DNA from: an uncultured Dehalococcoidales bacterium
Lineage (GTDB): Bacteria > Chloroflexota > Dehalococcoidia > E44-bin15
Reading direction: 5' to 3'
DNA: 64,000 nucleotides
Assembly: GCA_964443325.1 (NCBI GenBank)
Contig: CAYUCL010000003.1
Span: 33,961-97,960, forward strand
The notes below the pieces were generated by a model, which saw only the letters and a list, made by a program, of their open reading frames with translations, was not told the DNA's origin and ran no database searches. The translations under genes were made by a program, and so were the position numbers. Below are positions 1 through 45,181 of this stretch, in pieces; position 1 is the stretch's first letter; each line of letters begins with the position of its first letter.

Positions 1-594
1 GCTCCTGACGATGTACGCTGCCGGAAGGCCCAACACCAACACCATCACGCCTATGACTATCGATGCCGTACGCCAGCCGAAGTTGGTGATAAGCAAAGCC
101 AGCAAAGGCACCATTGCGGCACCACCCAAACCACCACCCGTGGTGATGAATGAGAGGGCACGGCTTCTCCTCTTGATGAACCAGTTCGCTGTGGCGGTAG
201 TTGTGGCATGGAAGAAGCCGGTTTCGAAACCCATGGTGACAAGGAGCCCAAAGATGAGGTAGAGACTCAGCACACTATTGACCGTACTAAGGGCCATAAA
301 CCCGATGCCGGTAAGGGTTACACCGATGAATATCAGCTTTCTGGCGCCGAATTTGTCAATCAGCCATCCAATGATGGGCCCCTCGATGCCCCCTTCTAAC
401 CTGGACAACGAATAGGCGCCAGACGTAATCGCCCTTGACCAGCCGAACTCGGCAACCATCGGGTTGAAAAAGGCGCTGAATCCGTAAAATACTGAACCTA
501 TGCCTAGAAAATAAAGGAAGCTGCCGGCGGCAACGACCCACCAGCCGTAGAAGACTCTCTTCGGTCTTGAGGCGAGTTCCTTTATGGTATTCAT
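1..594 (-). CDS. MFS transporter, OFA (oxalate/formate antiporter-like) family, N-terminal part; paralog of the 738..2075 gene. The gene runs off the window start.
   Basis: Reverse-strand translation from the ATG at 594 gives MNTIKELASRPKRVFYGWWVVAAGSFLYFLGIGSVFYGFSAFFNPMVAEFGWSRAITS..., closely matching the N-terminus of the 738..2075 protein (MNVITQIKARTNKVFYGWWIVAAGSSLYFLGIG...). No stop codon was met in the stretch translated (594 down to about 421); the ORF track does not list it. Confidence 0.55.
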   Translation of the reverse strand, partial: MNTIKELASRPKRVFYGWWVVAAGSFLYFLGIGSVFYGFSAFFNPMVAEFGWSRAITSGAYSLSRLEGGIEGPIIGWLIDKFGARKLIFIGVTLTGIGFMALSTVNSVLSLYLIFGLLVTMGFETGFFHATTTATANWFIKRRSRALSFITTGGGLGGAAMVPLLALLITNFGWRTASIVIGVMVLVLGLPAAYIVRS

Positions 595-737
595 CTAGAT
601 TGAGTGCTATTCCCTCCGTATGAGACGCATCATCCTTTCTGCAACTGCGAGATTTCACATGCAGCCCAAAAACCAGATTCCCTTACCGTCGCATCTCACC
701 GCGCAGCCTACTATGGTTACAGGAATAGTGTGCACAT

Positions 738-2075
738 TCACACTGGTCTTATACCCGTAGGTGCATCGGTAATGCTCGATGTCCGCTTCGGAAACCTTAC
801 AAGGAGGAATGCCAATCCTGACAAACTAACCAGCCCTATGAAGGCATAGAAGGCTATGCTGTAGCTGCCTGTGGTATCGTATATGTATCCAGCAAACACC
901 GGCGCGGCCACAGTGGCAATGGCGGTAAAAAACGATGTTAGTCCGCCCATAGTGGCGAATATCTTGCGCCCGAAAAGCTGTCCTCTGAGCGCTATCGTCA
1001 GCGGGATCGCCCCCCCATAACCAACACCGTAGACTGCTACAAACACGTATGCCGTCCAGAGGCTGTCAACGTTGATAAGGATCCATATTCCTGCTGCCTG
1101 AAGCGCTGATGAGACAAGCAGCAGCAGTCTCTTGTCAAATATGTCGCCCAGCCAGCCGAACAGAATCCTACCCGGAACACTTATGAGAACCATCGTGCCG
1201 AGAACAGCAGACGCAGCGGTGTAGGAGATCCCGACGTCAACCAGGTGAGGTATCTGGTGCACCACCAACGCGCTAAGGATGCAGGCACGTAGCATCATGG
1301 CGGGCATATAGGTCCAAAATGCAGTGCTTTTCAGGGCCTGCCTAACAGTGAGATTGATCTCGTCTTCCGGCATAGCCACCGATGATTGCCCTTCCACCTC
1401 AGCGGGAACCGCCTCAGGCCCCGCTTGTGGGCCTTTAGGAACCATAGCGCCGTCAGGCAGCATGCCTTTATCTTCCGGCCTGCTCCTCATCACATAGGCT
1501 AATGGAAGGCCGCCTATCAATAGCACCACACCGATGATTACACCGGCCAAACGCCAGCCATACTGAGTGATGAGGAAAGCGAGTAAGTTCACCATGACGA
1601 ACCCACCCAAACCCCCGCCAACGGTGATGAAGGCTAGGGCACGGCTTCTCTTTCTAATAAACCAGTTAGCAGCGGCGGTAGTGGTGGCATGGAAGAAACC
1701 AGTGTTGTACCCCATAGATATGAGGAGCCCGAAAATGAGGTAGAGGCTCAAGGTGTTGCTGATTGCAGGTAGACATATATACCCGATGCCGGCAAGTATT
1801 ACGCCAATGAATATCAGCTTCCTTGCCCCAAACTTGTCTATCAATGGCCCAATGATTGGCCCTTCAATGCCACCCTCCAGCCGAGAGAGTGAATAAGCGC
1901 CAGAGGTGGCTGCCCTCGACCAGCCGAACTCGGCAACCATTGGGTTGAAGAAGGTATTGAATCCATAGAAGATCGAACCTATGCCGAGGAAATAGAGGGA
2001 ACTACCTGCTGCGACGATCCACCAACCATAGAAGACCTTATTCGTTCTTGCCTTAATCTGTGTGATCACATTCAT
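738..2075 (-). CDS. MFS transporter, OFA family (12 TM predicted)
   Basis: 445-aa hydrophobic ORF. The N-terminal YGWWIVAAGSSLYFLG motif and the central cytoplasmic loop are typical of OFA-type MFS. It sits in tandem with the partial paralog at 1..594. Confidence 0.7.
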   Translation of the reverse strand: MNVITQIKARTNKVFYGWWIVAAGSSLYFLGIGSIFYGFNTFFNPMVAEFGWSRAATSGAYSLSRLEGGIEGPIIGPLIDKFGARKLIFIGVILAGIGYICLPAISNTLSLYLIFGLLISMGYNTGFFHATTTAAANWFIRKRSRALAFITVGGGLGGFVMVNLLAFLITQYGWRLAGVIIGVVLLIGGLPLAYVMRSRPEDKGMLPDGAMVPKGPQAGPEAVPAEVEGQSSVAMPEDEINLTVRQALKSTAFWTYMPAMMLRACILSALVVHQIPHLVDVGISYTAASAVLGTMVLISVPGRILFGWLGDIFDKRLLLLVSSALQAAGIWILINVDSLWTAYVFVAVYGVGYGGAIPLTIALRGQLFGRKIFATMGGLTSFFTAIATVAAPVFAGYIYDTTGSYSIAFYAFIGLVSLSGLAFLLVRFPKRTSSITDAPTGIRPV

Positions 2076-2459
2076 TGGATATATCTTATAGAAGGCGATG
2101 GGCGCCTTGCAAACAAGGGGCGGAGCCCGTCGTCCGAATCAGGCACCGCCCCTTCTATTTTAGATAATATCAGCTCTGAGGTCACAAATCAACACCACGC
2201 ATTTATTGAATTAGGCCCCAGACGGTGATGAAGGAAAACCAAGCACAGTATGTCAGACGACACACATTATACAGCTACGCTGCCTTTGGCACTCGGCACA
2301 CGACCAGCCTAATGTCTCGGCTTTAAACACAGTAAAGACACAATGTGGTAAACTTGCAGGAAAGGGTGAAGCAGCTAATATAAGCCCGTACCATTCAAAG
2401 TTTCCATGCGCTTTGCCCCTTGCTTATCGCCCTGTAGAATACCCAAAGGAGGAATGTAA

Positions 2460-35834: not shown

Positions 35835-36530
35835 GTGGAAACCGGGGATGAAAGAATACGATATGCCATTGAACACACAGCGGTGTTGAGATTCCCCAGG
35901 CAATCTCTGGCTACATTCGGCACTACCAATGTGAACTACTACTTATTAACCAAACCGGTGTATGCCGAGATGGTAGATAAAGAAGAGACTGTCATAAGGG
36001 AGGGGAGAGTCAGTGCAGAAAGACCGAAGATAATAACACCTTCTTATCTTACCAGACTTGAGGGTTTTGGCGAAAATGCCAGGAGATACCTTGAAGTTGT
36101 AGTGAGAGAGTATGGGCCTCATGCTCCTGGGCTTCTCTATAGCTATAAAAATGAGCCGAAAGGGCTCTCAACTGTATCCGACGGATTGGGCGTAGTAGTC
36201 GGAAGATTAAATGAGAGAATAGACAAGGAAGAAAATAGGCTGGCAGCGATTATACAAGGCATTGATGAACTGTGGGACGTATCGCTACTCAAGTTCATAA
36301 AGGAGTTAACAGAGGGGTCACTTAGAAGCAACCTTGCCGAATTAGGTAGTAGAGGCCTCCTCGACATAGACTACGCCGGTGTTCCAAGAGATGCAAGATA
36401 TCGAATTGAGCTACTTTTTCAGCAGGTCGCAAGCGGTGAACGAGACCCATCGGAACTGAAGAGAGAGCTTGATAGATGGGAGCTGTTCCCTGAATACGAG
36501 GACCGATTCCTCGGCCTATTTAGCAAATAG
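35835..36530 (+). CDS. hypothetical protein
   Basis: GTG start. No family recognised. A promoter-like TTGACT...TAAAAT lies upstream. Confidence 0.3.
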   Translation: METGDERIRYAIEHTAVLRFPRQSLATFGTTNVNYYLLTKPVYAEMVDKEETVIREGRVSAERPKIITPSYLTRLEGFGENARRYLEVVVREYGPHAPGLLYSYKNEPKGLSTVSDGLGVVVGRLNERIDKEENRLAAIIQGIDELWDVSLLKFIKELTEGSLRSNLAELGSRGLLDIDYAGVPRDARYRIELLFQQVASGERDPSELKRELDRWELFPEYEDRFLGLFSK

Positions 36531-36569
36531 GCACATCCCTTCACCGCCGCGGTGGCGCAAATCTGCTGA

Positions 36570-37772
36570 TTACAGTATCGCCCCTTCTTCCTTCATCGCG
36601 ATGATGTCATCCCAGGTGTACCCCAAGTCGAGAAGTATCTCTTCGGTATGCTGGCCCAACTCGGGCGCCTGCTCTCGCACCATGCCCGGCGTCTCGCTCA
36701 GGTCGAGATTGACCCCAACCACCTTGGCCTCGCCGACGCCCGGATAGTCGATGGTCACCAGATAGTCATTCTCTATCACCTGCGGGTCGGAGGCCAGCTC
36801 GGTGAAAAGCTGCACTGGCGCCCACGGGAACTGCCACGGCTCCAGGCACTCGATCCACTCTCTCTGTGTTTTGGTGAGGAACAACTCGTCAAGGATGGAC
36901 ACCAGAGCATCGCTGTTCTCCCGCCTTGCTTCGTAGGCCCCGAAGCGGGGGTCCTCCTTCAGGTACTCTATCCCCACGGCTTCGCAGAACTGTGCCCAGC
37001 TCGCGTCGTCGTGCATAACCGCAATCTGGATGAACCTGTTGTCCTTGGTCTCATAGATGTTGTACAGGGAGCCCTCTTGCACGTGTGACTTGCCATACAT
37101 GTCCTGATTGGCGTATAGAGAGGCATCGACACTACAGGCCGCCATCTTCATGAAGGCGCCAAGAAGTGAGGTGTGCACCAGTTGCCCCCTGCCGCTTCTC
37201 TCGCGGTGATAAAGGGCGAGCATAACTCCGTAAACTAGGTATGTCGCTGCTATGTAATCACCCAGTGCTGGCGGCCACACCGCGGGGCGAACCCCGCGCT
37301 CGACGAAGCTCGTTAGCATCCCGGACCCCGCAACTCCGGTCACCTCGAAGCCGCCACGATTACGGCCCGGCCCCTTCAGCCCCCACCCGGTGCCCAAGGC
37401 ATATATGAGCCTGGGATTCATGTGGGACAGCGTATCGTAGTCCACTCCCAAGCGCTCAAGACCCCCCATCCGCAGGTTTGTTACGAAGATATCTGCATCC
37501 CCCACCAGCTTGTACATCACCTGCCTTGCACTCTCGAAGTGCAGGTCGAGCGTCATGCTCTTCTTTCCACGCTGGATCTGGTCGAAGTACGAATTGAATC
37601 CGTTTGACGGCACGCCGCGCAGGATATCCACCCCTCGCAAAGGGTCACCGCCGCGGGGAGTCTCAATCTTAATCACCTCCGCCCCCATCTCGGCAAGGTA
37701 TTCTGAGGTTCGCGGGCCGAATGCCTGTATGGTGAAATCAACGACCCGTATGCCCTCCAGTGGTGCACTCAT
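36570..37772 (-). CDS. family III CoA-transferase (CaiB/BaiF family)
   Basis: N-terminal LEGIRVVDFT..GP.....LAEMGAEVIKIE motif, 400 aa. Confidence 0.8.
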   Translation of the reverse strand: MSAPLEGIRVVDFTIQAFGPRTSEYLAEMGAEVIKIETPRGGDPLRGVDILRGVPSNGFNSYFDQIQRGKKSMTLDLHFESARQVMYKLVGDADIFVTNLRMGGLERLGVDYDTLSHMNPRLIYALGTGWGLKGPGRNRGGFEVTGVAGSGMLTSFVERGVRPAVWPPALGDYIAATYLVYGVMLALYHRERSGRGQLVHTSLLGAFMKMAACSVDASLYANQDMYGKSHVQEGSLYNIYETKDNRFIQIAVMHDDASWAQFCEAVGIEYLKEDPRFGAYEARRENSDALVSILDELFLTKTQREWIECLEPWQFPWAPVQLFTELASDPQVIENDYLVTIDYPGVGEAKVVGVNLDLSETPGMVREQAPELGQHTEEILLDLGYTWDDIIAMKEEGAIL

Positions 37773-37805
37773 CTATGCCTTCTCCTCTCCATGGTATGCC
37801 AGCTC

Positions 37806-39008
37806 TCAGAGTACTGCACCCTTCTCCTTCATCACAATTATGTCATCCCATGTATAGCCCAGTTCCAACAGAATCTCTTCCGTTTGTTGACCCAGTTCTG
37901 GAGCCTTGCCTCTTATCTGGCCTGGCGTCTTGCTTAGATCGATAGCAGTCCCCACTACTTTGACTTCACCAACCTCCGGATCATCCAAAGTAACAATATA
38001 ATCATTTTCAATAATTTGTGGGTCCGAAGCTAGCTCGGTAAAGTACTTAACTGGCGCCCATGGAAACTGGTATTTCTCGAGGCGCTCGATCCATTCGCTC
38101 TGGATTTTAGTGAGAAATACTTCGTCCAATATAGTAATAAGAGCCACATTATTTTCACGTCTGGCCTCTGGAGAGTTGAATCTGGGGTCATCATTTAAGT
38201 GCTCAAGGCCCATTGCTTGACAGAATTCAACCCAACTGCGGTAGTCCTGAACCACTGCCAATTGTATCCACCTCTTGTCCTTAGTCTGGTACATACTATA
38301 CAGAGCGCCATCACCTTCATGGGGCAATCCAAACATGTCCTTCCCCGCAGCAATGGAAGTATCAATAACAGCGGACATAACCTTCATACAAGTACCCAGA
38401 AGTGATACATGTACCATCTGACCTTCTCCGGTTCGTTCCCGGTGAAAAAGGGCGAGCATTATGCTATATGCCAGAAATGTTGCCGCCGTATAATCACCAA
38501 AAGCCGGCGGGCACAGCGGTGGGCGGGAGCCAGGCTCAACAAAACCCGACACTAATGCAGATCTGGCAAAACCGGTAGCCTCAAAAGCACCCCGGTTCCG
38601 TGCTGGGCCCTTCAGGCCCCACCCAGTGCCAATAGCATAGATTAGCCTGGGATTGACTCTGGATAGAGTCTCATAATCCATTCCCAGCCTTTCCAATCCA
38701 CCCATCCTCAGGTTCGTTACAAAAACGTCTGACTTCTCAATGAGTTTGTATGCTACCTCGCGTGCTTTCTCATGATGTAAATCCATGGCAATGCTTTTCT
38801 TCCCCCGATTGGTTTGCTCAAAATAAGCCTTAAACTTGCCAATTGGCACTTCCCTCATGTTATCTATCCAGCGAATAGGCTCACCGCTTTGGGGATTCTC
38901 TATCTTGGTCACCTCAGCTCCCATTTCAGCGAGATAGGCAGCAGTCTGAGGGCCAAAAGCATATTGGGTCAAATCCAGAACCTTGATTCCTTCTAGAGGC
39001 ATGCTCAT
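37806..39008 (-). CDS. family III CoA-transferase (CaiB/BaiF family), tandem paralog
   Basis: LEGIKVLDLTQYAFGP..AAYLAEMGAEVTKIE motif. About 60-65% identical to the downstream paralog, separated by 33 nt. Confidence 0.8.
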   Translation of the reverse strand: MSMPLEGIKVLDLTQYAFGPQTAAYLAEMGAEVTKIENPQSGEPIRWIDNMREVPIGKFKAYFEQTNRGKKSIAMDLHHEKAREVAYKLIEKSDVFVTNLRMGGLERLGMDYETLSRVNPRLIYAIGTGWGLKGPARNRGAFEATGFARSALVSGFVEPGSRPPLCPPAFGDYTAATFLAYSIMLALFHRERTGEGQMVHVSLLGTCMKVMSAVIDTSIAAGKDMFGLPHEGDGALYSMYQTKDKRWIQLAVVQDYRSWVEFCQAMGLEHLNDDPRFNSPEARRENNVALITILDEVFLTKIQSEWIERLEKYQFPWAPVKYFTELASDPQIIENDYIVTLDDPEVGEVKVVGTAIDLSKTPGQIRGKAPELGQQTEEILLELGYTWDDIIVMKEKGAVL

Positions 39009-39351
39009 CTATGTTTCCTTCTCCTTTCCGTCACTATGTTATTTGGCTAGAATCGTTATCCGCCATTTAATATTCCAATTCTTAACGCGAAGCTGTCCAT
39101 TCCTACCTTCTACGCAAACGTGAGTTTTTTGAACCTTTTGCCCCTAAGAGCCAATCTGCAGGTTTATATAGAATCACCTATCTTTGTTCCGCGAACTTTG
39201 CCAGAATGGTTTGGGGAGAAACCAAAGCAAGAACTGCCACGAATCAGCGGGACAGGCAGGTACAATTTCACAGATGCTTGTTTTGTGTTTACTTTATTCA
39301 GCTTCTCAGATCGTCCAAAGGTGCTACTCTAAATGCCGTGCTTCCAATTTA

Positions 39352-39675
39352 TTAATAGGGAGAACGCTCGTTATCATAATACTTATTCACGAATGCAATA
39401 TATTCATCAAGCAAGGTTGCCGCTTTACCGTTGTCGCCATTATGTATAGCCTTAATTGCGCTTTCCAATATTCCAATTTCCATATCAATCAGCGAGGATA
39501 TATTGCAAAGATTGCCAACGCAGGAACCCATATCGCTTCGCCACATATGCGATTGCTTTATGTCTACTAGCTTTTTTATATCGGCAAGACACTCCTCTTT
39601 TGTTTGAGGGTTAGCCAGTTTTTCTTTGGTAGCAGCCATGGATGCTTCGACATCCCCCTTATCCATCATCAACAT
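39352..39675 (-). CDS. hypothetical small protein (107 aa)
   Basis: No family recognised. Divergent from the LexA-box promoter region. Confidence 0.3.
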   Translation of the reverse strand: MLMMDKGDVEASMAATKEKLANPQTKEECLADIKKLVDIKQSHMWRSDMGSCVGNLCNISSLIDMEIGILESAIKAIHNGDNGKAATLLDEYIAFVNKYYDNERSPY

Positions 39676-39812
39676 TTCGCTTCTCTCTCCTGCTATTGAA
39701 GTTAAAAATTATTCAACACCCTTTTAACATTATAAGGCTAACTAACGCAATTGCCAAGGGGCTTGAGGCACGCAATCAGCTCGCGAGCTTAAGATAGCAA
39801 ACAAAAAGGCTC

Positions 39813-39841
39813 TTGACTTGCACTCCCATTAGATGTATAAT
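39813..39841 (+). promoter_or_regulatory. consensus sigma70-type promoter (TTGACT, 17-bp spacer, TGTATAAT extended -10)
   Basis: TTGACT at 39813-39818 and TATAAT at 39836-39841, preceded by TG. Confidence 0.5.
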
Positions 39842-39842
39842 T

Positions 39843-39856
39843 AGAACAAATGTTCT
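39843..39856 (+). promoter_or_regulatory. LexA (Cheo-type) box AGAAC-AAAT-GTTCT overlapping the transcription start of the small-ORF / dnaE operon
   Basis: GAAC-N4-GTTC with perfect inverted 5-bp arms, located immediately 3' of the -10 hexamer. Confidence 0.55.
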
Positions 39857-39877
39857 TACTGCCTCGATCTTCTTTCC

Positions 39878-40126
39878 ATGAGCAGAATCATTTTAGAGAA
39901 GGTATTACTCTATCGAAAGGACGGAATGGTTCCCCAGGCCTTCATCTGGCGGGGCCGAGTCTACCGCATCACCAGCGTCATAAACTGGTGGCGAGAGCCC
40001 GGAGCCTGGTGGGAGGGGGAACCAGTACGCTCTTTTCTCCGGGTCACTGCTAAGAGGGAGACCGAAGGCGTATGCGACCTGTGCAGGGTGGGACAAGATT
40101 GGCTGCTGTACCGAATTTACGACTGA
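39878..40126 (+). CDS. small conserved-looking hypothetical protein (82 aa, Trp/Arg-rich) translationally overlapping the dnaE start
   Basis: MSRIILEKVLLYRKDGMVPQAFIWRGRVYRITSVINWWREPGAWWEGEP... Its stop at 40124-40126 lies inside the first codons of the DnaE ORF. Confidence 0.4.
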   Translation: MSRIILEKVLLYRKDGMVPQAFIWRGRVYRITSVINWWREPGAWWEGEPVRSFLRVTAKRETEGVCDLCRVGQDWLLYRIYD

Positions 40127-43100
40127 AGGAGTTCATTCACCTCCATGTCCATTCCCCATACAGCTTTCTCGACGGCGTATCCCCTATCGAGCGCCTTCTA
40201 CAGAAAGCAAAGCATTTCGGCATGCCTGCTATGGCCCTAACCGACCATAATAGCCTGACCGGAGCCATTCGCTTCTACGATAGGGCAAGGGAAATGGGCA
40301 TCAAGCCTATTATCGGCGCTGAGGTCGATGTCGAAGGTGGTTATCACCTGACCATTCTAGCCCAGGGTATCGAGGGGTATGCCAACCTGTGCCATCTTCT
40401 TTCCGAAGCCCACCTGGCCAAGCTCGATCCCCACCCGGCGGCTACCAAGGAGATGCTGGCCAGGCATTCCAGTGGTCTCACAGTCCTCTCCGGTTGCAAC
40501 AAAGGCGAGATTCCTAGCCTGGTCGCCAGGGGCCTCCCGGAAAAAGCGAAGGAAGCTGCAGCATTTTACCAGAGCATCTACCCGGACCGCTTCTACATCG
40601 AGCTTGTCTACCACCCCAACAGGGATGGCAGGCGCTCCATATATCGACTGCTGGAGTTCGCCAGGGAGCTATGTCTTCCCGTCGTCGCCACCAACGACGT
40701 TCACTATGCTGAGATGGAGGAATACGCCGTCCACGAACTCCTGGAATCTATCCGGCAGATTATTCCCATAGAGCAACTTCCGGGCCCCAGGACGGTGGAG
40801 CAGTACCTCAAATCCCCTACCGAGATGGCCGCCCTTTTCAGGGATATCCCTGAAGCCCTAAGCAACACGGTAGCGGTGGCCGAGCAATGCAATCTTGATC
40901 TCCCCCTGGGCGAGCCCAAGTTTCCCGTTTTCTCTCCTCCTGCCGGATACAGCGCGCAGAGTTACCTGAGGGAACTGACATATCAAGGAGCCTCGCGTAG
41001 GTATGGAAATCCCAGCACGGTGATCCTGGATCGCCTGAAGCACGAGTTTGAGGTTATTAGCCTACTGGACTTTGAGACCTATTTCTTAGTGGTGTGGGAT
41101 ATTGCCCGCTTCGCCAGGGAAAGAGGCATCCGCTACCAGTGCCGGGGCAGCGCCGTCAATAGCCTTGTAGTCCACTGCCTGGACATCAGCAATGTGGACC
41201 CGTTGGAGTACGATCTGCTCTTTGAGCGCTTCATGCACAAGGAGCGCCGCGAGATGCCAGATATCGATCTCGACTTTCAGCGCACCAGGCGGGATGAGGT
41301 GAAGGAATACATTACCAGCAAGTACGGCAGGAACAGCGTGGCGGCAGTGGCTACCATCAACACCTTCCAGGCCAGGAGCGCCATCCGGGAGGCAGCCAAA
41401 GCTCTCAACCTGCCTAAAAGTGCTTTAATAGGGCTTCAGGCAGGCGTCCGATGGCAGTCGGTAAAGGAGCTTGCAGCGTGCACCAATACTCTCCCCGAAT
41501 TGAAGACTAACCGAGCCCTCAGAAACCCGGTGTTCAGGGATTTTCTAAAGCTGTGCTCAGCCCTGGACGGTCTGCCCCGGCACCTGTCGGTGCACCTGGG
41601 TGGTCTGGTTATCAGTCCAGGCAGTCTTGCCGACTGGGTGCCACTGCAATGGTCCAGCGGCGGCGATGTCATCACTCAGTTCGAAAAGGACGACATCGAG
41701 CGTCTGGGCCTCATCAAGATGGATATCCTGGCCGTTCCCACACTGGACGTCATCGAGGACACGGTGGCTGAGGTGAAAAGAATCCGGGGCGTCGAGGTAA
41801 ACGTAGACTCCATCCCCCGAGACGATCCCGCAGTCTTTGCCATGCACCGGGAGGGGGACACCATCGGCTGCTTTCAGGTGGAGAGCCCGGCGCAACGGGA
41901 GATGGCAGGTAGGCTGCTTCCCGAATGCTTCGATGACCTGATACTGCTACTGGCTCTCATCCGGCCAGGACCCATGAAATCGAGGATGCACGAGAAATAC
42001 CTTAAAGTGAGACAGGGGCAACAGCCGCTGACCTATCTGGACAAAAGGCTGGAACCAGTGCTCAAGGAGACCCTGGGCCAGTTGGTCTACCAGGAGCAGG
42101 TGCTCCCACGAACTGGCGGGGATGAGCTACGCCGATGCCGACGGGCTGAGGCGGGCCATGACCCATGGACGCTCTCCCGAAGAGATGGAAAAGATACGCG
42201 AGGCTTTTATCTCCTCATGTCTGAGCAACAGCGTATCTAAGACAATTGCCCAGACAGCTTGGCAAGAGGTCTCAGCCTTTGCTGCATATGGCTTCCCCAA
42301 GGGTCATGCCGCCTCCTATGCCATTCCTGCCTATCAAACCTTGTGGCTTAAGTGCCATTATCTGCCGGAGTTCCTGGTCAGCGTCCTCAATAACCAACCC
42401 ATGGGCTATTATCCACCCTGGGTGTTGGTGCAGTATGCCGGGTGGAAAGGAATCGAGGTGCTGCCACCCGACATCAACATGTCCATGGATCGCTATTCCT
42501 TAGAGGATCGAGCTATCAGGATGGGGCTGTCTCAACTCAAGGGGGTCTCTAACCCAGCCTTGGCTTCTATACTCAGCGCCAAAAATAAGGATGGGCAATT
42601 CCGCAGTGTGGGGGACTTTCTGCTGCGAACAAACGTGCCCAAGTCAACCACTGAGGATCTCATCAAGGTGGGGGCCTTCGACTCCATTTGTGGTAACCGG
42701 TGCCAGCTTATATCCCAGCTAGATTCCCTGCTTACGAACAAGCAGAGGCGCAGGCATGGTACGCAGAATGAAATGATTCCCTTTGGCGAAGTTGGCAAGG
42801 AAAATCTCACCGATGCCTCAACTCCACCCATCGATGCTGCTCTGTGGCAGCACTACGAGCTTGACCTGCTGGGTCTTCCCATTAGCGGACACCCTCTGGA
42901 TTCGCTGGATGGCCGGATTAAGGGCATCACCAAAATCAAAGACCTGAAGGGGTTGCTAGCCAACCACCGGGTAAAACTTGCAGTGGGGGTTATCAGATAC
43001 CAGACCCCGCCTATCTGGGATGGAACCAGAGTTGTCTATATCTGCGCCGCGGACGAAACGGGCATTGTGGATATAACTCTCTTCTCGGACGCCCAGGAAC

Positions 43101-43246
43101 GCTCAGGTGAAGCTCTCTTCAAGGCAGGATGGCTCTTGGTTGAGGGAATTGTGCAGCGTCGAGGACTCCACGCACTGTCAGTGATAGCTTATCGTGTTGC
43201 CACCTTACAGCCCCCCGCTTCAAGTCAACGTAAAAAATGTTTTTAA
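40072..43246 (+). pseudogene. dnaE: DNA polymerase III alpha subunit (DnaE family, short form ending after the OB fold) interrupted by a +1 frameshift near 42100-42112
   Basis: ORF 40072..42240 carries the PHP domain (HLHVHSPYSFLDG) and polymerase core up to ...VYQEQVL. DnaE homology then continues in the +1 frame (HELAGMSYADADGLRRAMTHGRSPEEMEKIR..FAAYGFPKGHAASYAIPAYQTLWLKCHYLPEF..) as ORF 42122..43246. The combined length is about 1055 aa. Confidence 0.75.
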
Positions 43247-43483
43247 TTTGGCAACTATCCCTTGAAGGTAGGTATAATACAATGATAATGGGTAAAACAA
43301 ATAGGCTGGAGACCTTGCTCATTGCCTCTCAACCTATTTGCTATTGGGTTCTATATTACAGTCGATTGCTTTCCCATCAAGCTACCGCCCCACCAAGATT
43401 ATAGCACTATGATAAAATTTTTGACTAGAGAGCAATAAAATGATATGCTGACTTCCCTGAAAGGCCAAGAAGGGAGGCGCAGT

Positions 43484-44305
43484 ATGTCATTGGGTATAGT
43501 ATTCAAGGGACCCGAAGGCATTGTTTTAGCTGCTGATAGTAGGGTTACGCTTAACGCACATTTGCCAAACCAAAATTTAATCATTTCAGCTACGTTTGAT
43601 AATGCTACTAAGCTACTCAGAGTTAAGGGGCAAGATTATATCGGAGCAGTCACCTATGGGATGGGAGCTCTAGGAGAAGGAACTCCTCGAACCGCTCACA
43701 GTTTTATCCCAGAATTTGAGGCTAAGTTAAGTAATGAATCAGGGGATAGATTGAGTGTCCCAGATTTTGCAGATAAGATTAGTGAGTTTTTCTTGTCTCA
43801 ATGGACAACAAGCATGCCCAACAATTATCAAGGACCAGATATGGTATTTCTGGTAGGTGGGTTTGACGAAGGTTCTCCGTATGGGCGAGCCTTTGAGATT
43901 GGGATACCCTCTCGACCAACACCAAAAGAATGGCACGTAAATACTTTTGGGCCTGTATGGGGTGGGCAGCGAGAGTTCACAGACCGTTTAATACAAGGAT
44001 TTGACCCAAGAGTGCTAGATATAGTTAAGGATACATTTGGCTTATCTAATGACCAGCAGGTTGAATTACAAGATAAACTTAAACCGCTCAGCGTGCAAAT
44101 CCCTTATCCTTTTCTACCATTGCAGGACTGTGTTGACTTGTCTATCTTTTTAGTGAGAACTACTATGACTATTCAAACATGGCAAGTAGGTGTGCGGGGC
44201 GTAGGTGGTGCAATAGATGTCGCTACTATTACTCGAACTGATGGATTCAAGCCTGTGCAACTGAAAAGAGTAAGAGGTGAATCATCCAGTATGGAGGAAG
44301 ATTAA
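43484..44305 (+). CDS. proteasome beta-subunit-type Ntn-hydrolase homologue with Ser at the nucleophile position
   Basis: Start at the internal Met, which has a GGGAGG RBS. MSLGIVFKGPEGIVLAADSRVTL aligns with proteasome beta / HslV / Anbu N-termini (TTIVGV.YKDGVVLAADTRAT). Asp17 and a Lys about 40 are retained, and there is a C-terminal extension. Confidence 0.5.
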   Translation: MSLGIVFKGPEGIVLAADSRVTLNAHLPNQNLIISATFDNATKLLRVKGQDYIGAVTYGMGALGEGTPRTAHSFIPEFEAKLSNESGDRLSVPDFADKISEFFLSQWTTSMPNNYQGPDMVFLVGGFDEGSPYGRAFEIGIPSRPTPKEWHVNTFGPVWGGQREFTDRLIQGFDPRVLDIVKDTFGLSNDQQVELQDKLKPLSVQIPYPFLPLQDCVDLSIFLVRTTMTIQTWQVGVRGVGGAIDVATITRTDGFKPVQLKRVRGESSSMEED

Positions 44306-44306
44306 A

Positions 44307-44504
44307 GTGGAAGTTCTAACAAATGGAGTGGGAACAAAAGAATGGGAGGAAATAAGTAAGGATTGGTATATTTACGCATATGTGCCAGGTTCTCCTATAG
44401 GTGATGTAACCGAAGGGTTATCTTCAGAAGAACAGGATAGTGTTTTCACGAAACAAGACTCTGAAAAAGTACTCAAAGAAGTTAGCCGCAAAATTAAGAA
44501 GTAG
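44307..44504 (+). CDS. small hypothetical protein (about 65 aa) translationally coupled to the proteasome homologue
   Basis: GTG at 44307, 1 nt after the TAA stop of the upstream gene, with GGAGGAAG 7 nt upstream. No family recognised. Confidence 0.3.
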   Translation: MEVLTNGVGTKEWEEISKDWYIYAYVPGSPIGDVTEGLSSEEQDSVFTKQDSEKVLKEVSRKIKK

Positions 44505-44665
44505 TTATTTGGCCTAGAACAGTCTTGAACATAGCTCTTTCATCTTTCCTATGATTGTATCGAAAGGTGTATTCGTCTAGACATGATTGGAGATACTTAG
44601 GTGATATAGCATGATAGACATCAGAAATACCACGCTTAACCAAAGACCAGAAACCCTCAATGCTA

Positions 44666-45181
44666 TTACTGCTGAGAATCCTTCTCCATCTCCTCCAGGA
44701 TGATTCTGGTTGTGAGCCTGGCTGTTTCCCCAACGAGCTTTGAGCAATAATCGAACATACCAAACTTCGTGGCTTCTTGTAGCTCATTAGGGTCATACAG
44801 GTTGAAAGTCCTGCCCATAAGCCTTTCTTGAATGTCGTAACACCGGCAAGTGCCATATTTTTCAACAAACTCGTCATGCAACCTTTTTGACAGTATATAG
44901 GATTTCAGCGGCTTCATCATATCGGCAAAATCCTTCCTTTCCCTGCCAAAAAGATAGCCTATCACTATAGCCCCTGCCGTGAGAGACCCACAAGTCCCAT
45001 CTCCGGTTAGCCCCAGCCCGTCAGCTAAACCACTCGCCGCCTTGAAAACATCTTCATTGTCAATATCAAGAGCATCGAAAATTCCCGCAATCGTAGTCTG
45101 TGCGCATCCAGTACATTCCCTTTCATACTTGCGCCCCCGCTCAAAGGCCTTATTTGAAATCTCTTCGATTGACTTTCCCAT
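44666..45181 (-). CDS. C_GCAxxG_C_C family (putative redox-active) protein
   Basis: CTGCAQTTIAGI motif plus downstream Cys residues. Start moved to the Met with an AAGGGGG RBS. Confidence 0.6.
   Translation of the reverse strand: MGKSIEEISNKAFERGRKYERECTGCAQTTIAGIFDALDIDNEDVFKAASGLADGLGLTGDGTCGSLTAGAIVIGYLFGRERKDFADMMKPLKSYILSKRLHDEFVEKYGTCRCYDIQERLMGRTFNLYDPNELQEATKFGMFDYCSKLVGETARLTTRIILEEMEKDSQQ

Follow-up and report, generated by a model that had tools for sequence, protein, structure and literature searches.

An 8-nucleotide deletion private to one assembly splits a dnaE-type DNA polymerase gene of a sediment Dehalococcoidia strain

Introduction

Frameshift-fragmented PolIII-alpha genes whose close relatives are intact have been described by Timinskas et al. 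(2014), who treated them as likely sequencing or assembly errors and rejoined the pieces (PMC3919608). The dnaE-type gene described here lies in a 64,000-nucleotide stretch of DNA from an uncultured Dehalococcoidales bacterium (the window) and belongs to this already known, ordinary class, being a C-family polymerase gene that is split by a frameshift while its close relatives are intact. It differs from the earlier cases in that the lesion is exact, one unit of an 8-nt quasi-repeat, and private to one assembly of a strain that has been sampled more than ten times. We read the split as a lesion of an ordinary kind that is confined to this assembly; it is either a rare allele with loss of function or an error of assembly, and programmed frameshifting is not involved. 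Beyond the known class, the lesion is now correctly defined (8 nt lost rather than 1 gained), the way to repair it is established and the strain's normal allele is found to be intact; mildly unusual is only the coincidence, at the same base, of another independent deletion with the end of a contig.

Three other kinds of system invite comparison. Like slipped-strand or microhomology deletions between direct repeats, the lesion removes one 8-nt unit (6/8 identical to its neighbour) and has a 3-nt CTC at the junction, although the repeat in the window is short and imperfect; neither reversibility nor variation in repeat number was seen at the site, which is therefore not a contingency (phase-variable) locus. 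With programmed frameshifts such as dnaX (-1) and prfB (+1) the locus shares a change of frame, here within a replication gene, but the window lacks a conserved slippery heptamer, a stimulatory element and conservation among orthologues, and coding sequence is missing from it. The intein-split DnaE of cyanobacteria likewise comes in two pieces, whereas the window contains no intein sequence and residues have been lost rather than inserted. The cyanobacterial split site, which we take to be ...AEY|CFNKSH, lies about 45 residues downstream of the junction in the window (where the corresponding sequence is AAY|GFPKGH), and the idea of an intein-loss scar was discarded for this reason.

The gene and its two reading frames

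The plus strand carries an ORF at 40072..42240 (722 aa) and, overlapping it in another frame, a second at 42122..43246 (374 aa); DnaE homology runs in one frame up to ...YQEQVL (42105) and then in the next frame from HELAGM... (42107). The 5' part of the gene (40072..42105, plus strand) encodes residues 1-678 in the native frame and contains the PHP domain (PF02811), the palm/NTPase region (DNA_pol3_alpha, PF07733) and the first three quarters of the fingers (DNA_pol3_finger, PF17657, positions 1-122 of 166), the Pfam matches extending to residue 678, a leucine with its codon at 42103-42105. Orthologues are called from a TTG at 40099, so that P0125, the same-strain protein discussed below, begins at residue 10 of the window ORF. 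The 3' part (42107..43246, plus strand) reads from HELAGMSYADADGLRRAM... to the stop in the shifted frame, of which the earliest ATG is at 42122, and carries the remainder of the fingers (PF17657, positions 127-165 of 166), the HhH domain (HHH_6, PF14579) and the C-terminal region. The stretch 42106..42240 (plus strand) forms an out-of-frame tail of the upstream ORF with 44 aberrant residues (PRTGGDELRR...EQQRI) and a stop.

The order of the C-family core, PHP and Pol3 palm/NTPase followed by fingers and (HhH)2, is present over both ORFs (PF02811, PF07733, PF17657, PF14579), and the first ORF alone scores 619.7 bits against TIGR00594, for which the cut-off is 434. NCBIfam DnaE models break adjacently at the same point (NF004226, for example, matches at positions 4-684 and 689-1064), and three to four profile positions are skipped at the frame break. 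An uninterrupted frame through the fingers helix YQEQV(M/L)-x3-...RRAM is absent from the window, where the break falls at 42105/42106 and 8 nt and three residues are gone. The frame switch sits inside one gene and a chance match is ruled out. A sequence-only reading of this DNA had already proposed two overlapping out-of-frame ORFs and a frame switch at 42105/42107 within dnaE, and the ORF coordinates, Pfam and NCBIfam bear it out.

A loss of eight nucleotides

The skipped profile positions called for a closer look at the lesion. The protein obtained by removing one C from the window was aligned with the best 30 of 7,858 homologues found, all full length (1,020-1,105 aa) and the best of them 92% identical; all 30 have three additional residues (R/K/Q/E-I/V-A) between YQEQVL and HELAGM, and the same spacing is present in 120 of 120 homologues among the matches listed. 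The tripeptide also occurs in the sequences of the Taq and Mycobacterium tuberculosis structures, and Escherichia coli Pol III alpha aligns gap-free to the intact form, with Q692-I693-A694 as the residues that correspond to those lost, 15 residues ahead of R709-R710. At the DNA level, four orthologous loci (L001-L004; 88-95% nucleotide identity) align collinearly with the window gene, interrupted only by one gap of 8 nt, GTGCT[CAGGATCG]CCCAC, and alignment with intact copies from the strain itself places the 8 missing nucleotides as GTGCT[CAGGATCT]CCCAC. The net +1 effect on the frame arises from an 8-nt deletion and not from a 1-nt insertion.

The two alleles at the site can be written ...CAGGTGCTCCCACG... 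and ...CAGGTGCTCAGGATCTCCCACG.... In the strain's intact allele CAGGTGCT and CAGGATCT adjoin as an imperfect 8-nt tandem repeat in which six of eight positions are identical, and the first unit, CAGGTGCT, is retained in the window at 42097..42104 (plus strand). The junction itself reads GGTGCT|CCCACG and can be placed in four equivalent registers within 42102..42106, owing to the 3-nt CTC microhomology at 42103-42105; the C at 42106 is what remains, as third base, of a lost TCC (Ser) codon. Serine is peculiar to the strain: its intact allele (L090, L095, L100, L101) has TCC where all 120 listed homologues have Ala (GCC in relatives), and because of this G-to-T change the strain has the second CTC of the microhomology and a better 8-nt repeat. 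The CCC run is thus nothing but the new deletion junction and not a homopolymer that has gained a base. The proper repair is to restore CAGGATCT, which gives R-I-S, and not to remove a C, since a repair of the latter kind can silently yield a protein that lacks conserved residues. In annotation the locus is best recorded as a dnaE-type polymerase from which 8 bp are deleted in comparison with the strain's standard allele, not as a recoding site or a homopolymer error. As local context only, a weak inverted repeat (GCCAGTTGGT / ACGAACTGGC; 10 nt, 90% complementary) surrounds the junction at 42077..42117 (plus strand). A hairpin-driven deletion was considered and found unpersuasive, as folding of the local DNA gives an unexceptional z-score of -1.63 and the inverted repeat is short and imperfect.

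Other assemblies of the same strain

The neighbouring proteins of the window led to contigs of the same population from JGI metagenomes 3300031278, -331, -337, -351, -358, -575, -586 and -643, from several Logan SRA assemblies and from MAG GCA_034430535.1. Four assemblies cross the site, namely JGI 3300031278 (L090/L093), Logan SRR8556701 (L095), JGI 3300031331 (L100) and JGI 3300031358 (L101); none has a mismatch to the window within the gene and all read CAGGTGCT CAGGATCT CCCAC. A full-length protein on record, P0125 (1,051 aa, from 4 JGI contigs), matches the window product with 100% identity after restoration of R-I-S. Over window positions 15272-61460 (46,189 nt), compared with 28 distinct same-strain contigs, the 8-nt gap is the sole indel and is accompanied by a handful of SNPs, which implies that the assembly is not error-prone and represents high-accuracy sequence with one private lesion.

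The deletion allele itself was not recovered elsewhere. The out-of-frame tail has no match in a collection of 5.8 billion proteins, look-ups of the first ORF (two start variants), the second ORF and the 286-aa neighbour returned no record, and a search of metagenome contigs with the junction pattern allowing N{0,8} gave a single match, the intact relative L003, and no carrier of the deletion. The 8-nt deletion is unique to the window's assembly and the strain's normal allele is intact. As a separate observation, the ends of many independent same-strain contigs cluster in the AT-rich intergenic stretches 39201-39402 and 43362-43541 that flank dnaE, a pattern that looks like coverage or assembly dropout rather than biology.

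A private allele or an artefact of assembly

Purifying selection acts on the gene: when the window, L001-L004 and L045 (a further related locus that is described below) are compared pairwise, dN/dS is 0.13-0.25 throughout, also for the part past the break when read in the restored frame. The explanation preferred here, held with confidence evenly matched by doubt, is that the 8-bp deletion was present in real DNA as a private allele of this normally intact gene. The window would then carry an ordinary dnaE-type (C-family) polymerase gene of a salt-marsh or sediment Dehalococcoidia strain, and the molecules behind the assembly would have lost 8 bp, one unit of CAGGTGCT|CAGGATCT flanked by the CTC microhomology, with strand slippage or microhomology-mediated deletion as the mechanism that the pattern of the repeat suggests. 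Such a pattern would fit replication in the cell and amplification in vitro equally well. The loss takes the conserved R-I-S/A tripeptide from a helix of the fingers domain and shifts the frame, so that the predicted product has 678 native and 44 nonsense residues and is without the HhH domain, the C-terminal region and the RRAM stretch of the fingers; the HhH- and OB-bearing C-terminal third would be left untranslated or translated separately, making this a loss-of-function allele. It may be very recent and rare or sample-specific in a population whose standard allele is intact, and neither selectively maintained nor recoded. If the reads bear it out, the allele would illustrate on a small scale that a polymerase gene can be polymorphic for loss of function in an environmental population that is otherwise clonal.

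Against a real allele stands the fact that all four same-strain assemblies that span the site are intact. Its strongest competitor, an appreciable possibility though a doubtful one, is an artefact of assembly, consensus or curation, in which the organism's own DNA has the unbroken sequence (CAGGTGCTCAGGATCTCCCAC) and the 8 nt disappeared in contig merging, bubble collapse, long-read polishing or amplification. This would account for a deletion that neither the protein look-ups nor the tail search found anywhere else, and for a gene with no further change relative to the intact copies. A frameshifted and possibly essential polymerase is moreover improbable as a majority allele: if the polymerase of this type, which lacks the C-terminal domain (CTD), is the sole replicative one, the allele would be lethal and unable to dominate a living population. 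Dehalococcoides ethenogenes 195 has been reported to have a single dnaE1 (PMC5054071). The artefact reading also draws on two same-strain contigs, of which one (L085) ends at 42104 and the other (L094) starts at 42146, which makes the region a join point in other assemblies. It is opposed by the lack of any other indel in 46 kb compared with the 28 contigs, which does not resemble a noisy long-read consensus, and by the clean loss of one unit with 3-nt microhomology, which resembles polymerase slippage rather than a mis-join. It also sits badly with the working of De Bruijn assemblers, which emit only those junction k-mers that reads contain.

The contig that stops at the site deserves closer description. 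L085 (DAOUED010000310.1, from MAG GCA_034430535.1) matches window 36166-42104 with 100% identity along its full 5,939 nt and terminates at 42104, within the junction interval. The chance of a contig end in this 4-nt interval was estimated by the author at about 0.5% (56 contig ends in 46 kb). The end suggests a branch in the assembly graph, that is, two alleles in the reads, although the contig stops one base before the sequence shared by the two alleles does, which makes the graph-branch reading inexact. L109, another contig of MAG GCA_034430535.1, differs from the window at 9 positions, and hence this MAG is not the same assembly as the window. The end of L085 lies in GC-rich coding sequence, and L094 starts 41 nt past the junction; the two contig ends together may reflect allele heterogeneity in those read sets.

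A second deletion at the same site

The site is also broken in L045 (CAZYLE010000140.1, a Dehalococcoidales MAG), which is 87% identical in the gene and closest to L002. It has a 50-nt out-of-frame deletion directly after GTGCTCAGGATC, which starts within 6 nt of the window's deletion; the lesion lies at 1190-1203 of that contig, equivalent to window 42105-42154, and splits dnaE into overlapping ORFs 62..1273 and 1203..2273. As L045 keeps bases that are lost in the window and lacks bases that the window retains, the two deletions are separate events. Downstream of the break the gene has a dN/dS of about 0.11 relative to L002. Among 82 other related loci L045 is the only one broken at the site, the other 81 being unsplit.

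The deletion in L045 and the break of L085 give a hint in favour of real, deletion-prone DNA. A stronger version of this idea is that the YQEQVL/RIA codons of CTD-less DnaE are a deletion hotspot in sediment Dehalococcoidia, where an accessory polymerase would be inactivated repeatedly, possibly under selection, or the DNA would break site-specifically. It takes its support from the independent out-of-frame deletions in two unrelated lineages, the window (-8 nt) and L045 (-50 nt), which start within 6 nt of each other, and from the third assembly that breaks at the same base, and is regarded as improbable. A link to restriction sites was tried and dropped: both deletions abut a GATC, but there are 10 other such sites in the gene and 161 in the window.

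Class of the polymerase

In Dehalococcoidia and Chloroflexota MAGs the family measures 1,020-1,060 aa and ends directly after the OB region, without the tau-binding CTD; on model NF004226, which has 1146 positions, the alignment of intact orthologues covers positions 4-1065. The intact proteins P0001, P0015 and P0009 score 899-933 bits against this DnaE1 equivalog, below its cut-off of 1002, and scores of 803-870 bits against the DnaE2 model NF004225 are likewise below the cut-off of 939. The PHP metal-binding motifs (HxH, D, TDH, E, H, C, DxH) are present in the window protein, as judged by eye on the alignment, and in the clamp-motif region the resemblance to QxxLF is weak, with QNEMIPF in the window and xxPLF/xxSLF in the 56% group.

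These features can be read in two ways. The CTD follows the OB region in 91% of DnaE1 proteins and a minority lack it (PMC3919608), so its absence does not exclude DnaE1; the absence of a CTD is at the same time a feature by which DnaE2/ImuC is recognised. Neither imuA/imuB nor Y-family genes were found as neighbours at the window, L001, L002 or L071, and the SRDF[H/R] motif of DnaE2/ImuC is absent from the C-termini examined. The neighbours in the window, L001 and L002 are CoA-transferases, a 107-aa ORF of no known kind and a C_GCAxxG protein, and in L071 their place is taken by a ferredoxin, an AFOR-type oxidoreductase and a response regulator. Since there are DnaE2B/X groups that lack ImuAB (PMC12926913), the neighbours leave room for membership of DnaE2, and other Chloroflexi carry both DnaE1 and DnaE2 (PMC3919608). 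By the criteria of Timinskas et al. (PMC3919608) the protein is either a CTD-less DnaE1 variant or an unassigned, DnaE2-like form; the literature on DnaE1 and DnaE2 gave no answer for this clade, and 'DNA polymerase III alpha subunit family' is a safe name where a finer assignment is not. A 3.8-Mb Armatimonadota chromosome (OY760504.1) has two loci, L010 and L059, each with a 43%-identical member of the CTD-less DnaE family, which can thus be multi-copy per genome.

The class of the enzyme bears on a further explanation, that the lineage has dispensed with this polymerase, for instance as an accessory DnaE2-like copy, and that the gene is an established and decaying pseudogene. A family that lacks the tau-binding domain, scores under the DnaE1 equivalog cut-off and has many members labelled 'error-prone DNA polymerase' by JGI would suit such a fate, as would the second MAG with a broken copy (L045). 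That the gene has decayed or that its loss is fixed in the lineage is nevertheless very improbable: outside the 8 nt there is 100% identity with the intact same-strain copies and not one further substitution, its dN/dS of 0.13-0.25 extends downstream of the break, and the intact allele is found in at least 4 samples.

Extra base and programmed frameshift

An additional C in the CCC homopolymer, whether as a sequencing indel or as a real +1 insertion, had been the sequence-only explanation of the frame switch, and removal of one C does open the frame; yet the repaired YQEQVL-HELAGM lacks the tripeptide of 120 of 120 listed orthologues, E. coli, Taq and M. tuberculosis, and same-strain DNA has exactly 8 more bases and no other difference, which leaves this explanation with next to no probability. 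Just as hard to credit is a programmed +1 ribosomal frameshift or a functional two-polypeptide DnaE, for which one could cite the net +1 shift common to the window (-8) and L045 (-50) deletions and the ATG at 42122 as a start for the second ORF, but against which stand a split without conservation (it is absent from 81 of 82 related loci and from every same-strain copy), junction sequences that differ between the two broken alleles and conserved fingers residues that are physically missing. There is no slippery site at the junction, where CTC CCA CGA does not re-pair in +1, no nearby stop, the first in the 0 frame coming only 45 codons past the junction, no Rfam match at E <= 1 over 39000-45000, no exceptional local fold (z = -1.63) and no convincing spacing of a ribosome-binding site before the ATG at 42122. 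For want of a slippery codon, stimulator, ribosome-binding-site spacing, near stop or conservation, a programmed frameshift or designed split enzyme is excluded for practical purposes. The sequence-only reading had offered assembly error, pseudogene and programmed frameshift as options and had proposed comparison with orthologous dnaE genes, a split shared by these being the mark of programming. The comparison was run: orthologues are unsplit at the site and the same strain is intact in four other assemblies, so that programmed frameshifting falls away while assembly error and a genuine inactivating mutation are still live.

Neighbouring genes

Downstream of dnaE, about 1.4 kb of the window (43247-44665, up to the C_GCAxxG gene) is absent at that position in L001, L002 and L003. 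Its ORFs of 273 aa (43484-44305) and 65 aa (44307-44504) have no family or structure match; for the 273-aa ORF beside dnaE there was none in Pfam or NCBIfam, and the only PDB matches were spurious ones to nanobodies (E ~1e-3). A remnant of the C-terminus of an IS1595-type transposase lies on the minus strand inside ORF 44494-44877, and the stretch 43247-44665 is probably the relic of a mobile-element insertion. On the other side of the gene, 36570-39008 (minus strand) holds two tandem 400-aa family III CoA-transferase paralogues (36570-37772 and 37806-39008), where L001 has one.
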